From NCBI RefSeq assembly GCF_900178005.1, contig NZ_FXBS01000006.1:1395585-1459584 (forward strand): 64,000 bases of DNA, written 5' to 3'. The notes beneath the pieces are model-generated. The model searched no databases and had not been told where the DNA came from. It saw only the letters and a program-made list of their open reading frames with translations. This stretch comes from Tuberibacillus sp. Marseille-P3662. GTDB taxonomy: Bacteria > Bacillota > Bacilli > Bacillales > Sporolactobacillaceae. A program made the position numbers and the translations under genes. Shown here piece by piece: positions 48,713 to 62,231 of the stretch (position 1 is the first letter of the stretch; every line of letters starts with the position of its first letter).

Positions 48713-49534
48713 TCAAATGTCAATCCGATGTTTCATAGGGTCAAATGGTTTCTCCTGTTCAGCCAGTTTCCAGTATGACATGGGCCGGCGCAGGTTCCAC
48801 TTTTGAAAGAAGCGGGTCCGGTTGTCTTTATAAACTTGATTGTAGTGCCATGGCAAGTTCGCAAATGATTGACCGCCGTAATGATGAATATAGACATCAT
48901 CTGCAACCCATAATCGATAATCAGCAATTAGAGTACGAAGGGACAGGTCATCATCTTCAAAGTTGCCGGGATAAAATTGTTCATCAAATCCGCCCACTTC
49001 TGTGAGTAACGACCGGCGAAAAACCATGCACATTCCGCTTAGTTGCTCAACCTCATAACCCTGAGAATGGTGCTGATCACGCCAGCGATCGGCAAACAGG
49101 TGAATATCTTCCGCAGACTTATAAGGCATATGATAAATCCGTTGCTTAGGTAAAATCCTATTTGAACGCGGACCGACAATGCCGATCGTTGGATCACGCC
49201 TGAGCCATTTCACTAAATTGCTCAGCCATTCTTTCGTTACAAACGTATCGTTATTCAACAATACGATGGTATCACCGTTCGCCGCACGTAATCCTTGATT
49301 ACAAGCTGCTGCAAATCCCTTGTTCTCATCATTAAATACACCCATCACCGTTTCCAAACTCTTGATATACGCTTGGGTACCGTCTGAAGAACCGTTGTCT
49401 ACGATTATCAACTCAAACGGTTGGGGTGTATATTGCCAAAGACTTGATAAGCAAGCCTTTGTTAATTCTAAACCATTACAGGTCACAAGAATAATGGACA
49501 CAAGTTTGTGATTTGATATCTTATGATCATGCAT
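48713..49534 (-). CDS. Family 2 glycosyltransferase
   Basis: It has VSIILVTCNGLELTKACLSSL...IIVDNGSSDGT...NKGFAAACNQG, and DXD (NND). Confidence 0.8.
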   Translation of the reverse strand: MHDHKISNHKLVSIILVTCNGLELTKACLSSLWQYTPQPFELIIVDNGSSDGTQAYIKSLETVMGVFNDENKGFAAACNQGLRAANGDTIVLLNNDTFVTKEWLSNLVKWLRRDPTIGIVGPRSNRILPKQRIYHMPYKSAEDIHLFADRWRDQHHSQGYEVEQLSGMCMVFRRSLLTEVGGFDEQFYPGNFEDDDLSLRTLIADYRLWVADDVYIHHYGGQSFANLPWHYNQVYKDNRTRFFQKWNLRRPMSYWKLAEQEKPFDPMKHRIDI

Positions 49535-49578
49535 CTTTTCTCACCCTATCAAACATGTTAACGACCGTACCATCCATT

Positions 49579-51318
49579 CTAGATGAATTGACTTATCAAA
49601 GTATCATATTCTCTAGCAACATTGAACCAGGTTCTCTTCAACACAGGATTGATGGCTGCCTGCTGCTTAGCTAAATCTCCCTTGTTTTGTTGTCGAAGTT
49701 CGCCTATGGCTCTTGTCATCTCTTCTAATGAATAGGGATCAAATGTCGTAAAATGCCTTGTATCTGGAATCACTTCATTAATAACGTCAATTGAGCTCAT
49801 AGCCACCGGCGTTCCCATTGTTAATGATTCAAGTATTTGAAAAGGACAGCTGCCTTCAAAAAGCGTAGGGATGATAGTGCCAATTGCATAATGATATAAT
49901 GATGGGACATGTTTTTCCGGTATTCGTCCAATAAATACAACACTGTCACGAGCCGCTTTATCTTGACAATGATTCAAAATTTGCGTAATCTCTTGCTGCT
50001 TTGGCCGATTAAGATAATGATCCGTTAACACCAAACGAAGATTGGACGCTTTGCCCTCATTACTTTGCTTATATCGCAAAAATGCCTCAATAAGTCTGTC
50101 ATGATTCTTATGCAGACGAATGACGGACGGATAGACAATGTAATCACCTTGTAAATGATACCGTCTCCTAAATTCAGCCTCATTGATTAAACCCAGTGAT
50201 TGATATTCTTCACTCGGTGCAGCCAAGCGAATCACTTTTGTTTTTGATTTCGGTAAGCCTAAAAACGTCAAACCTTCGTGATTTCTGACATAGTTTGAAT
50301 TGAAGACCACTTGCGCGGCACGATTGACGAGCTTTTGTGCAATCGGTGTAAAGGTTTGATTTAAATTCGGATGAACCTGATCATACAGATCCTTAAAATG
50401 CATATAAACCAAATCATGCAAACAGACAATGAGGGGACGAGTTAATTGCAGTGCAAGTTCCATACCTACATAAGGCACAATCCAAACATCAACAGGAATA
50501 TGCTGATTAACCCAAGCAACGCTCTGAAATTTTTGGATACTTAATCGGTCATGATAGCGGTGCAAAAGGTTCTTGAAGGCACTTGTTACATCAGCATAAT
50601 TCTGTTCATTTGTTACAAGGGTGATGGCGTTATCTTGATGGCCTGCTAGCAACCCTTCCACTAAACGGACTGAAAATCGTCCAATCCCTTCCCCGTCAAA
50701 GTGTTTTCCAACCTTTGTCGTATAACCTAGAAACAAACCTATATGCTTATTATGATTCATCCGATGATGATTATGAAATGCTTTCAGATTTCCTGAAGTT
50801 AGTAACTGATTGAATTCATGAGAATTGATAATATGAATAATGAATGACAAACGCAATTTGATTTGCTTGGCGCTGCGAGAACCTTGGCGCCGTTCCTTTT
50901 CATGAGGCAGCCGTCTCAAAATTGCTTCGTAAACAGCAGGTACAAATTCAGTCGAACTGACGTGAAGCAATGAATTGACATGATAAATCATCGTATACGG
51001 ATCCTGACCGATCAGCCCTTGTTTATGCTTATGCATCATCTCACTTTTATACTTCTGTAACAGTGCACGGATAACACGCATTTTATCCCCGCTGTGTCCC
51101 ATGAGCTGCAAATAGAATTGACATTCAGATTCACTCGGTTCCCGCTCTAATAGTTGCCGATAAAGTTCCAGTATGAGATCCCCTTGTTCTAAAAACATGA
51201 CTTGATGAAACAGCTCCGGAATCCCTTTAGGCGCTGCTTGCTTAAGTTGTTTCTGAAATACTTGATTATTTTGCCGTAGATGCATCATATCCATCTTGGC
51301 GCAACCCTCCTCTCCCAA
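49579..51318 (-). CDS. Glycosyltransferase (GT4/GT1-like C-terminal domain) with about 180-aa N-terminal domain of unknown function
   Basis: The C-terminus has GRIPEKHVPSLYHYAIGTIIPTLFEGSCPFQILESLTMGTPVAMSS, the EX7E-like motif of retaining GT-B enzymes. Confidence 0.65.
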   Translation of the reverse strand: MGEEGCAKMDMMHLRQNNQVFQKQLKQAAPKGIPELFHQVMFLEQGDLILELYRQLLEREPSESECQFYLQLMGHSGDKMRVIRALLQKYKSEMMHKHKQGLIGQDPYTMIYHVNSLLHVSSTEFVPAVYEAILRRLPHEKERRQGSRSAKQIKLRLSFIIHIINSHEFNQLLTSGNLKAFHNHHRMNHNKHIGLFLGYTTKVGKHFDGEGIGRFSVRLVEGLLAGHQDNAITLVTNEQNYADVTSAFKNLLHRYHDRLSIQKFQSVAWVNQHIPVDVWIVPYVGMELALQLTRPLIVCLHDLVYMHFKDLYDQVHPNLNQTFTPIAQKLVNRAAQVVFNSNYVRNHEGLTFLGLPKSKTKVIRLAAPSEEYQSLGLINEAEFRRRYHLQGDYIVYPSVIRLHKNHDRLIEAFLRYKQSNEGKASNLRLVLTDHYLNRPKQQEITQILNHCQDKAARDSVVFIGRIPEKHVPSLYHYAIGTIIPTLFEGSCPFQILESLTMGTPVAMSSIDVINEVIPDTRHFTTFDPYSLEEMTRAIGELRQQNKGDLAKQQAAINPVLKRTWFNVAREYDTLISQFI

Positions 51319-51333
51319 TCACATTAAACGTGA

Positions 51334-60656: not shown

Positions 60657-61500
60657 CGACCATCGACTCCTTCCATAAATATTCCTTCAGGGCTTCTTGC
60701 CAAATGCGTGGTTTCGTCATACAAGAGTGTTCCAACTTTTCCATACTTAATACGGAATACGCTGGCCGCTCCGCCTCCGTCTGAAAATCTTTCTTTTCGA
60801 TCGGTAGCACCCATTCAGGGTCAGACCCTAAAAATTGATAAACCGTTTGCGCGAGCTCATAGCGGGAACAGTGCCGGTCATTACTGATATGATAGATTCC
60901 CGGTGGGCATTCAAGTAGATTTAAACACGCGCTGGCAAGATCATCAGCATAAGTAGGAGCACCGATTTCATCCGTGACCACTCGAACCGTTTCCTGATGT
61001 TCAGCGCGTCGTTTCATCGTACTGATAAAGTGATTGCCGCCATGACCAAATAACCAAGATGTTCGGACAATATAGTTGGCCGACAAGTCACAGCCAATGA
61101 TTTCTTCACCTATCCACTTGCTCATGCCGTATACATTAATCGGATCGGTTGCATCATCCTCTTTATAGGGAATCGATTTTTCACCGCCAAACACATAATC
61201 CGTGCTAATATACATGACCGGACAATGCATACGTCGACATGCTTGAAGCACGTTTAAAACCCCTAGAGCGTTCACATTAAAAGCTTGACGCGGGTCGACC
61301 TCGCACTGATCAACATCGGTTAAAGCGGCTGCATGAATCACAATATCGGGTTCTAACTCACAGATCATGCTATCGGTTTCTTCACGATGGGTGACATCAA
61401 GAACCGTTCTAGATAGTGGAACAACCACATCGGATGGACGCTGCTTGCGTTTAAATGCTTCCCCGAGTTGCCCATCTCCGCCTGTGACCAAAATTTTCAT
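60634..61500 (-). CDS. spsK: dTDP-4-dehydrorhamnose reductase
   Basis: It has MKILVTGGDGQLG (Rossmann motif) and the RmlD pattern. It is equivalent to rmlD. Confidence 0.8.
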   Translation of the reverse strand: MKILVTGGDGQLGEAFKRKQRPSDVVVPLSRTVLDVTHREETDSMICELEPDIVIHAAALTDVDQCEVDPRQAFNVNALGVLNVLQACRRMHCPVMYISTDYVFGGEKSIPYKEDDATDPINVYGMSKWIGEEIIGCDLSANYIVRTSWLFGHGGNHFISTMKRRAEHQETVRVVTDEIGAPTYADDLASACLNLLECPPGIYHISNDRHCSRYELAQTVYQFLGSDPEWVLPIEKKDFQTEAERPAYSVLSMEKLEHSCMTKPRIWQEALKEYLWKESMVDDRRGEN

Positions 61501-61517
61501 GAACGTCACTCCCTATC

Positions 61518-62231
61518 CTATTCGTGGACGCAAACATTGGCTTGATAAAGCGTTTCATGAGTACCGGCATCAATCCACCAATCATTGAATACATCATAAG
61601 TGAGATCGCCTTCTTCGATATATTGATTATTAACATCCGTAATTTCTAATTCTCCGCGTCCTGATGGATCGATGCTCTCAATTCGATCAAACACCGTCCT
61701 ATCAAACATATAAATACCCGTTACACAGTAATGGCTTAGCGGCTGCTTTGGTTTCTCATGAATCGCTGTAATCGTTTGATTCGTTTTATTGACGATTGCG
61801 ACGCCGAATCGTTCCGGATCAGGAACATGCTTTAATAAAACATGGGCTCCCTTCTTTCGTTCCAAGAACTGTGAAACGAATGGCGCTAAGGATTGCCGGT
61901 AAATGTTATCGCCGAGATGAACCACGACTGATTCATCAGCTGCGAAATATTTGGCTTGATAGAGGGCGGCTGCGATCCCATCGGGTTGTTGTTGGATCCC
62001 ATACTGAAGATTCACGCCCCACTCATGACCATCCCCTAACAATCGTTGAAACAAATCAAGATCATGTTGATTCGTAACAATGAACAAATCGCTTATCCCT
62101 GCCTCTTTTAATTTAAAAATCGGCCAAACAATCATAGGATAGCGGCCGACAGGCAATAGATGTTTATTGATGACTTTGGTTACCGGACGAAGCCTTGTGC
62201 CCGCCCCTCCGGCTAAAATAACGCCTTTCAT
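61518..62231 (-). CDS. spsI: Glucose-1-phosphate thymidylyltransferase, short SpsI-type
   Basis: MKGVILAGGAGTRLRPVTKVINKHLLPV matches the RmlA N-terminus. Its 237 aa fit the short SpsI form. Confidence 0.8.
   Translation of the reverse strand: MKGVILAGGAGTRLRPVTKVINKHLLPVGRYPMIVWPIFKLKEAGISDLFIVTNQHDLDLFQRLLGDGHEWGVNLQYGIQQQPDGIAAALYQAKYFAADESVVVHLGDNIYRQSLAPFVSQFLERKKGAHVLLKHVPDPERFGVAIVNKTNQTITAIHEKPKQPLSHYCVTGIYMFDRTVFDRIESIDPSGRGELEITDVNNQYIEEGDLTYDVFNDWWIDAGTHETLYQANVCVHE

Follow-up and report, generated by a model that had tools for sequence, protein, structure and literature searches.

What does a spore polysaccharide operon build when its rhamnose genes lack one step and a different sugar-nucleotide module stands among them? 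The question is raised by a gene cluster at positions 62231 to 48713 (minus strand) of a 64,000-nucleotide stretch of the genome of Tuberibacillus sp. Marseille-P3662 (NZ_FXBS01000006.1, positions 1,395,585 to 1,459,584; this whole 64-kb stretch is hereafter called the window). In Bacillus subtilis, SpsI-L make the rhamnose of the spore surface under the control of σK (PMC4191935; PMC7439481). The Tuberibacillus cluster has counterparts of spsI, spsK and spsL and none of spsJ, next to genes predicted to make GDP-N-acetylperosamine. I argue below that it is probably an sps-type operon that builds a heteroglycan on the spore surface, in the crust or exosporium; the support for this is indirect but convergent.

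Gene identities were taken from an open reading frame (ORF) listing of the window, followed by Pfam and NCBIfam profile scans. The SpsI product agrees in full (100% identity) with a Tuberibacillus sp. Marseille-P3662 protein encoded on a 2.05-Mb contig, and Per and hyp544 also have matches in that genome. The cluster is one unbroken minus-strand block of 13 genes, separated by gaps of 0-139 nt or overlapping slightly, and transcribed in the order spsI-spsK-spsL-GT2-gmd-manC-GT4-perB-per-hyp544-sulfotransferase-DUF4214-GT4-GT2. An initial annotation of this DNA had described a co-directional, packed or overlapping block, which the ORF listing confirms, but it had counted fourteen genes and had placed manC after spsL, where the actual neighbour is an SpsA-like GT2. 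The genes it had named, spsI/spsK/spsL-like (RmlA/RmlD/RmlC), manC, gmd, a DegT-family aminotransferase, a PglD-like acetyltransferase and a sulfotransferase, were all recovered by profile and homology searches. Its inventory of glycosyltransferases (GTs) was right as to the single sulfotransferase and a GT-like hypothetical protein and wrong in number, since the glycosyltransferases total five: the SpsA-like GT2 with a C-terminal extension, a GT4 (called GT4a here), the hypothetical protein (hyp544, a predicted GT-B), a GT4 with a DUF4214-like domain, and a terminal GT2.

The predicted GDP-N-acetylperosamine module

The product of gmd (57812-58804; the likely true start is ATG 58774, behind a GGAG ribosome-binding site (RBS)) scores 448 bits against the GDP-mannose 4,6-dehydratase model TIGR01472, above its equivalog cut-off of 415 bits, and is 74-77% identical to the Gmd of Bacillaceae clusters. 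The next gene, manC (56614-57672; ATG 57672 behind a GAGGTG RBS, the longest ORF beginning at GTG 57681), encodes a mannose-1-phosphate guanylyltransferase with Pfam NTP_transferase and ManC_GMP_beta-helix domains. It matches TIGR01479 (GMP_PMI) with 272 bits over model positions 3-349 of 467 and stays below the cut-off for the bifunctional enzyme because it has no phosphomannose isomerase (PMI) domain.

The identity of the aminotransferase was the point on which a perosamine assignment depended. The best solved relatives of Per (53766-54878, 370 aa, a start that agrees with NCBI protein P0121) are the Caulobacter crescentus GDP-perosamine synthase structures 3DR7/3BN1 (E 1e-137, 462 bits, 57% identity over 362 columns), and the segment with the pyridoxal-phosphate lysine, FSFFGNK, is conserved between the two enzymes. 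The runner-up structure reaches 309 bits and UDP-sugar enzymes of the WbpE/PglE type about 210 bits, so that Per sides with the GDP-perosamine synthase and not with the UDP-sugar enzymes. Homologues at 60-69% identity carry the Joint Genome Institute (JGI) name perosamine synthetase. Similarly, the best solved relative of the PerB-like protein (54871-55518, 215 aa, PglD_N plus left-handed β-helix) is Caulobacter PerB (4EA7; E 1e-51, 178 bits, 48% identity), ahead of the closest PglD-type enzymes at just 100-111 bits. The DHD catalytic segment of PerB is conserved in the acetyltransferase alignment, and the protein scores 208 bits against TIGR03570 (NeuD/PglB/VioB), above the cut-off of 161 bits. 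The gmd-perB-per trio recurs in six other loci.

These matches of Per and PerB lend good support to the GDP-perosamine/GDP-N-acetylperosamine gene set proposed in the initial annotation. Together, ManC, Gmd, Per and PerB make a convincing predicted pathway to GDP-N-acetylperosamine, which is the best-supported part of the finding. ManC would form GDP-mannose, which Gmd would convert to GDP-4-keto-6-deoxy-D-mannose; Per would aminate this intermediate to GDP-perosamine, and PerB would acetylate the latter to give GDP-N-acetyl-D-perosamine.

Glycosyltransferases and predicted sulfation

Which enzymes would use these donors? A genome-collection scan with GT4a (55515-56639; Pfam Glycos_transf_1) gave 131 relatives in species genomes, all of them in Bacillota lineages, from which 80 loci were kept, and neighbours were counted within 10 kb, at no less than 35% identity and 60% coverage, in 84 loci. 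A gmd gene was found near GT4a in 73 of the 84 and a manC gene in 64, whether or not per was present. Since GT4a tracks gmd and manC regardless of per, it is tied to a GDP-mannose-derived donor, and this linkage suggests that it probably transfers mannose or another GDP-linked 6-deoxyhexose. Many of the GT4a orthologues of Paenibacillus and Cohnella carry N-terminal extensions of 70-125 aa that consist of 35-51% Lys + Arg (loci L053, L057, L061, L064, L065, L070, L075, L078 and L081 of the comparison set and about 15 further loci, in each case just upstream of position 10001). Orthologues from Bacillaceae, and the Tuberibacillus protein itself, are without this extension, which may serve as a targeting tail.

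The candidate for the perosamine step itself is hyp544 (52097-53731, 544 aa). No Pfam or NCBIfam family passes its threshold on this protein, the one match being to GT4-conflict with 15.6 bits against a cut-off of 26 bits, and the first Glu of the EX7E motif is seemingly replaced (YHLHYTPIE); on these scores hyp544 is a divergent lineage outside sequence-level GT4 membership. In a confident AlphaFold2 model made with 20 homologues (predicted local distance difference test (pLDDT) 89.1, predicted template modelling score (pTM) 0.81), residues 1-375 form a GT-B domain of two Rossmann folds and residues 405-544 a β-sandwich, the two being joined by a disordered linker. The protein is thus predicted to fold as a GT-B enzyme resembling GT4 members, followed by a β-sandwich like that of a carbohydrate-binding module; structure prediction and fold search in this way bear out the GT-like character that the initial annotation had given it.

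The hyp544 family is small, with 28 sequence clusters among 5.8 billion proteins. Members of named origin come from Tuberibacillus, B. cereus, Priestia megaterium, Paenibacillus and Maledivibacter; all others are metagenomic. In every locus examined hyp544 adjoins gmd and per, and in the metagenomic, Maledivibacter and P. tarimensis loci perB as well. One metagenomic locus (L086, hyp544 at 7318-8952) has the hyp544-sulfotransferase-DUF4214-GT4 order of Tuberibacillus, and in Maledivibacter halophilus (L085, 6629-11638) three tandem hyp544 paralogues directly follow per. Because hyp544 is a constant neighbour of gmd and per, this gene linkage makes it the best candidate for an (N-acetyl)perosaminyltransferase.

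The other three glycosyltransferases would, on the same kind of linkage, add further residues. The SpsA-like GT2 (58859-60172, 437 aa; Pfam Glycos_transf_2) matches the structures of B. subtilis SpsA (1H7L and others) over residues 6-224 with E 1.4e-54, the next match scoring only 55 bits; a C-terminal extension of about 210 aa makes up the rest. Its orthologues in Peribacillus and B. cereus-group loci are 42-47% identical. DUF4214-GT4 (49579-51318, 579 aa from an uncertain TTG start) matches Glycos_transf_1 with E 6e-14 and, N-terminally and weakly, DUF4214; orthologues at 43-47% identity occur in Peribacillus, B. cereus-group and Paenibacillus loci. The last gene of the cluster encodes a GT2 of 273 aa (48713-49534; Glycos_transf_2, E 7e-30) that has weak NCBIfam matches to EpsD and to a rhamnosyltransferase subfamily and is 49% identical to its Peribacillus orthologue.

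The glycan would moreover be O-sulfated, with 3'-phosphoadenosine 5'-phosphosulfate (PAPS) made elsewhere in the genome, by the product of the gene between hyp544 and DUF4214-GT4 (51334-52074), a 246-aa protein classed as a PAPS-dependent, carbohydrate-type sulfotransferase. It scores 33.2 bits against Pfam Gal-3-0_sulfotr (cut-off 27) and 26.9 against Sulfotransfer_2 (cut-off 22), contains a KTGGTT motif like the 5'-phosphosulfate-binding (5'-PSB) site and an RDP motif like the 3'-phosphate-binding (3'-PB) site, and weakly matches heparan sulfate 2-O and 6-O sulfotransferases. Orthologues at 47-49% identity lie in B. cereus-group loci beside genes for adenosine 5'-phosphosulfate (APS) kinase and ATP sulfurylase. 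In B. pseudomycoides (L015, 6301-9990), genes for an SLC13-type transporter, APS kinase and ATP sulfurylase immediately precede the orthologous cluster; the same three kinds of gene also stand immediately beside GT4a-gmd clusters in L007, L009, L012, L020, L030, L037, L040 and L043, which belong to several genera, and an APS kinase gene adjoins 13 of the related loci, again in several genera. Such a dedicated supply of PAPS argues for sulfation as a genuine trait of clusters of this kind. A separate locus of a JGI metagenome (L088, 13123-19971 of 3300049170) contains spsIJKL followed by three sulfotransferase genes, a PglD-like acetyltransferase gene and a DegT aminotransferase gene; its gene content makes it another cluster of the sps type, in an organism that has not been cultured, with the potential for extensive sulfation.

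A rhamnose module without spsJ

Profile scans agree with the initial annotation that the first three genes are of the spsI, spsK and spsL type. SpsI (61518-62231, 237 aa; Pfam NTP_transferase, E 4e-60) is a short-form, RmlA-like glucose-1-phosphate nucleotidyl(thymidylyl)transferase, with 239 bits against the NCBIfam rmlA model, under its equivalog cut-off of 361 bits, an intact GGxGTRLxPxT motif and 51-60% identity to the SpsI of Bacillaceae and Paenibacillus spsIJKL operons. SpsK (60634-61500), the RmlD-type dTDP-4-dehydrorhamnose reductase, passes TIGR01214 (rmlD) with 291 bits against 224, matches Pfam RmlD_sub_bind with E 4e-90, has the YxxxK and GxxGxxG motifs and is 39-44% identical to proteins of such operons; a metagenome scan with SpsK gave distant relatives alone, none above 36% identity. 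SpsL (60201-60656, 151 aa; Pfam dTDP_sugar_isom, E 1e-21) is a short RmlC-type dTDP-4-dehydrorhamnose 3,5-epimerase, likewise under the equivalog cut-off of its model (rmlC, 59 bits), and 62-71% identical to SpsL orthologues of spsIJKL clusters. All three proteins are full length and keep their nucleotide-binding and catalytic motifs.

As encoded in the window, the Rml pathway is nevertheless incomplete: neither the operon nor any other part of these 64 kb has a gene for RmlB/SpsJ. The absence of a 4,6-dehydratase gene between spsI and spsK had been pointed out in the initial annotation and is confirmed here at the junction itself: the spsI stop codon (TAG, 61520-61518) and the spsK start (ATG 61500, behind an AGGGAG RBS; the longest ORF begins at GTG 61509) are separated by a spacer of 17 nt, which leaves no room for a pseudogene or a remnant of spsJ. 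No third sugar enzyme of the short-chain dehydrogenase/reductase (SDR) family was found when phmmer was run with Gmd and RmlD on all six-frame ORFs of at least 80 aa in the window; the search returned these two proteins alone.

Is the gap a general property of such clusters? The syntenic cluster of Peribacillus frigoritolerans has a 319-aa spsJ product encoded between spsI and spsK, and spsJ is present in all nine comparison genome loci that have spsI and spsK, in a metagenomic spsIJKL-sulfotransferase locus, and on the contig of the closest SpsI homologue (63% identity). As spsJ is kept in all comparison loci with spsI and spsK, its loss is specific to Tuberibacillus, and on this comparison the gene has been cleanly lost from the operon in the Tuberibacillus lineage. 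The remaining genes do not appear to have responded to the loss. Tuberibacillus SpsI, SpsK and SpsL are 53-60%, 41-44% and 64-71% identical to their Bacillaceae orthologues, and the corresponding values for a Paenibacillus cluster that retains spsJ are 51-55%, 41-45% and 62-68%; this equal divergence gives no sign of decay or retooling.

Production of dTDP-L-rhamnose requires a dTDP-glucose 4,6-dehydratase encoded elsewhere. If the genome has none left, the rhamnose module is a dead relic, with spsI, spsK and spsL not yet decayed and a glycan devoid of rhamnose. This possibility concerns the rhamnose module alone and is compatible with a spore-surface glycan. It accounts for the lack of spsJ in both the operon and the window, and it draws on the retention of spsJ between spsI and spsK in every other cluster examined, which suggests that the copy within the operon is normally the one in use. 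I regard it as doubtful all the same, because none of the three genes is truncated and their catalytic motifs are intact, the new spsI-spsK junction has a proper RBS, and the divergence just described is that of a cluster with spsJ. In addition, Bacillota often carry second rmlB/rfbB copies in cell-wall polysaccharide loci. The supply of RmlB in trans is judged likelier than a dead branch, and is the probable state of affairs. The loss of spsJ in Tuberibacillus amounts to a natural experiment: can an enzyme encoded in trans complete the rhamnose pathway of the spore?

A different way of dispensing with spsJ would be for the GDP module to replace it. This idea was rejected, as Peribacillus has both the module and spsJ and as the divergence of SpsK and SpsL is not accelerated. 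A more exotic idea, a split-enzyme route in which SpsL and SpsK would act on the GDP-4-keto-6-deoxymannose of Gmd after the loss of spsJ to give a GDP-6-deoxy-L-hexose, has no support and is highly improbable.

A probable spore-surface location and related clusters

Where would such a glycan be assembled? A membrane-helix-like hydrophobic segment was found in none of the 13 cluster proteins, although a control membrane protein scored clearly, and Pfam and NCBIfam searches identified no flippase, polymerase, ABC exporter or priming transferase in the cluster; the homologous loci likewise show none across 20-kb spans. The 13 genes consequently do not match an exported O-antigen-type cluster, be it of the Wzx/Wzy or the ABC kind. 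The absence of membrane segments, and of export functions even in homologous loci, is what one would expect of a glycan assembled around the forespore, in the cytoplasm of the mother cell. During sporulation the soluble enzymes would act in that compartment and would build the heteroglycan directly on the proteins of the crust or exosporium.

The same observations bear on a second interpretation, in which the cluster makes a vegetative envelope polymer (an S-layer glycan, a secondary cell-wall polysaccharide, or a capsule or exopolysaccharide) of N-acetylperosamine and rhamnose, with priming and export encoded elsewhere. The combination of ManC, Gmd, Per and PerB is familiar mainly from O-antigen and lipopolysaccharide clusters, many close Per homologues come from organisms that do not form spores, e.g. 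Nitrospirota and Nostoc, and the cluster is not adjacent to coat genes. Against these points stand the purely soluble protein set, the lack of priming phosphoglycosyltransferase and export genes here and in the homologous loci, the restriction of GT4a, hyp544 and SpsA-like GT2 relatives to Bacillota lineages, and the σK-type matches at both operon entry points described below, which together make an envelope polymer improbable.

Evidence from the distribution of the cluster points to spore-formers. All 80 GT4a loci kept are from Bacillota: Paenibacillus, Cohnella, Bacillus (including B. pseudomycoides and B. thuringiensis), Peribacillus, Cytobacillus, Neobacillus, Metabacillus, Fictibacillus, Ectobacillus, B. 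methanolicus, Phosphitispora and three metagenome-assembled genomes; all genera named here form endospores. Next to 12 of the related loci stands a gene for a CgeB-like glycosyltransferase. Clusters of this type appear to be common in Bacillus and Paenibacillus and among the relatives of these genera. This weakens the suggestion of the initial annotation that the combination is unusual, since Peribacillus has a rhamnose plus N-acetylperosamine cluster complete with spsJ, and parts of it occur across Bacillus, Paenibacillus and Clostridia.

Soluble enzymes would equally suit cytoplasmic glycosylation of a protein unrelated to the spore, such as a flagellin, a pilin or a secreted adhesin, which also dispenses with membrane export machinery; flagellin glycosylation islands of Firmicutes likewise pair sugar-nucleotide genes with soluble glycosyltransferases. 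A search with an N-terminal Hag sequence as the query detected no flagellin gene up to 10 kb away in the 86 related loci, flagellar genes are absent from the window, and the SpsA, SpsI, SpsK and SpsL orthologies and the CgeB-like neighbours point to the spore. I therefore consider a non-spore target of this kind to be unlikely as well.

Promoter-like sequences give positional support for the spore-surface reading. The σK-type pattern AC-N16/17-CATANNNTA has three matches in the 64 kb, two of which lie on the coding strand in front of spsI and gmd: AC-N16-CATAtgaTA at 62279-62305 (minus strand), 48 nt upstream of the spsI ATG, and AC-N17-CATAgcgTA at 58809-58836 (minus strand), about 35 nt before the probable start codon of gmd. 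In related loci the strict motif occurs nine times at 5-200 nt upstream of cluster genes, against 2.4 occurrences expected (3.7-fold), the nine matches representing about six independent lineages. The third match in the window (40479-40505, minus strand) precedes a Na+/H+ antiporter gene by about 350 nt, with no convincing small ORF in between. Location on the spore surface is thus deduced from the orthology of four genes to sps genes, the lack of membrane proteins, the two σK-type matches, the CgeB-like neighbours and the Bacillota homologues. The spore glycan proposed in the initial annotation is plausible and is indirectly strengthened by the SpsA-like glycosyltransferase, the lack of a membrane or export protein, the promoter matches and the spore-forming hosts of the homologues, some of which lie beside CgeB-like genes.

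Several points weigh against this reading. The σK pattern is short, and its three matches in the window are fewer than the 6.5 expected from shuffled sequence; as the pattern is not enriched window-wide, only the positions of the matches are informative. The strict motif was moreover found upstream of GT4a in none of the 84 comparison entries scanned, and the motif was rejected as a general signal. The initial annotation had also cited a spore context. A cotH gene (36798-37871) and a gene for a LysM-SleB-like hydrolase (41479-42042) are indeed in the window, but they lie 6-11 kb from the cluster with antiporter genes, a nuclease gene and a phosphotransferase system (PTS) operon in between; because of these unrelated genes the proximity is weak evidence, and it was discarded as a strong argument. 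The donor and acceptor specificities of all five glycosyltransferases are inferred from gene linkage alone, genes for PAPS synthesis were not found in the 64-kb Tuberibacillus window, and the rhamnose branch may be non-functional. Finally, the literature searched links neither perosamine nor sulfotransferases to spores or exosporium.

Three other features of the window may be described here. The cotH gene (minus strand) is flanked by two CotB-like ORFs, at 33559-34266 and 36077-36757 (both plus strand), with weak DUF2642/DUF6897 matches; the first has a Ser/Lys/His/Arg-rich tail reminiscent of CotH-kinase substrates, and the region looks like a coat locus of the cotB/cotH type. Upstream of the cluster, between its first gene and a gene for an Rv2525c-like glycoside-hydrolase-like protein, most of a 700-bp divergent intergenic region is occupied by 4.1 tandem copies of a 104-bp unit (62365-62793, 94% identity). 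Each unit holds the palindrome GACACATACGTGTC; no Rfam match was obtained, and there is no further copy in the window. Downstream, after a gap of 87 nt, genes at 44713-48625 (minus strand) encode a PRD/Mga-type regulator of 663 aa with EIIB- and EIIA-like domains, a fructose-family PTS EIIBC and an EIIA. The layout resembles that of ManR/ManP, and the system could take up a hexose as a precursor.

If a sulfated N-acetylperosamine glycan is indeed what the cluster makes, how far does this chemistry extend? I would suggest, tentatively and as less likely to hold than the spore-surface reading itself, that Sporolactobacillaceae, Bacillaceae (including the B. cereus group), Paenibacillaceae and some Clostridia coat their spores with such a glycan, assembled in the mother-cell cytoplasm by the hyp544 family specific to perosamine clusters, and often with a dedicated supply of PAPS. 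This chemistry is not known to have been described for any spore, and the few spore glycans of known chemistry contain rhamnose and legionaminic acid (B. subtilis) or rhamnose and anthrose (B. cereus group). Taken singly, the enzymes are ordinary; it is the cluster type, the hyp544 family and the predicted spore glycan of sulfated perosamine that appear to be undescribed. No description of Tuberibacillus genomics was found in the literature searched. Spore-surface glycans govern adhesion, hydrophobicity, dispersal, and host and phage recognition. The cluster type points to a different, negatively charged spore chemistry based on N-acetylperosamine and sulfate, and it provides gene targets in culturable B. 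cereus-group and Peribacillus strains as well as a rare orphan glycosyltransferase family.

The nearest relatives of the cluster share different parts of it. The Peribacillus frigoritolerans cluster (CP128118.1, L001) has orthologues of 11 of the 13 genes at 42-77% identity, namely spsI, spsK, spsL, manC, GT4a, gmd, perB, per, DUF4214-GT4, the SpsA-like GT2 and the terminal GT2. It differs by keeping spsJ, by the addition of genes for PMI, an extra GT4, a GT61 and a methyltransferase, and by the lack of hyp544 and the sulfotransferase. By contrast, the B. cereus-group loci (B. pseudomycoides, L015; Bacillus sp. 491mf, L007; BP-3, L012) do have the sulfotransferase (49% identity) and hyp544 (61-62%), together with GT4a, gmd, per, DUF4214-GT4 and the SpsA-like GT2. 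They also encode a sulfate transporter, an APS kinase, an ATP sulfurylase and a CgeB-like glycosyltransferase of their own, whereas spsI, spsK, spsL and a close perB are not within 10 kb.

Among characterized systems, the four steps of ManC, Gmd, Per and PerB are those of Caulobacter crescentus (Per and PerB) and of the E. coli O157 and Vibrio O-antigens. The host here is by contrast a Gram-positive endospore-former, the module is set among sps-type genes, and the cluster is without Wzx/Wzy, ABC export machinery or a lipid-carrier priming enzyme. With the B. subtilis spsA-L operon it has in common the SpsA-like GT2, the SpsI, SpsK and SpsL orthologues, an exclusively soluble set of enzymes, the organization as a single co-directional operon, the spore-forming host and an upstream σK-type match. 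The Tuberibacillus cluster departs from that operon by the loss of spsJ, by a GDP-mannose-derived N-acetylperosamine module in place of legionaminic-acid genes (spsC-G type), and by the addition of a sulfotransferase, GT4a, hyp544 and DUF4214-GT4. The third comparison is with BclA glycosylation in the exosporium of B. anthracis and B. cereus (rmlACBD plus antABCD), although no collagen-like BclA gene was seen in the 64-kb window. As would be the case in Tuberibacillus, L-rhamnose is combined there with an unusual derivative of a 4-amino-4,6-dideoxyhexose. Anthrose derives from dTDP-4-keto-6-deoxyglucose and bears a 3-hydroxy-3-methylbutyryl group, whereas the amino sugar of the Tuberibacillus cluster is predicted to derive from GDP-mannose and to be N-acetylated.

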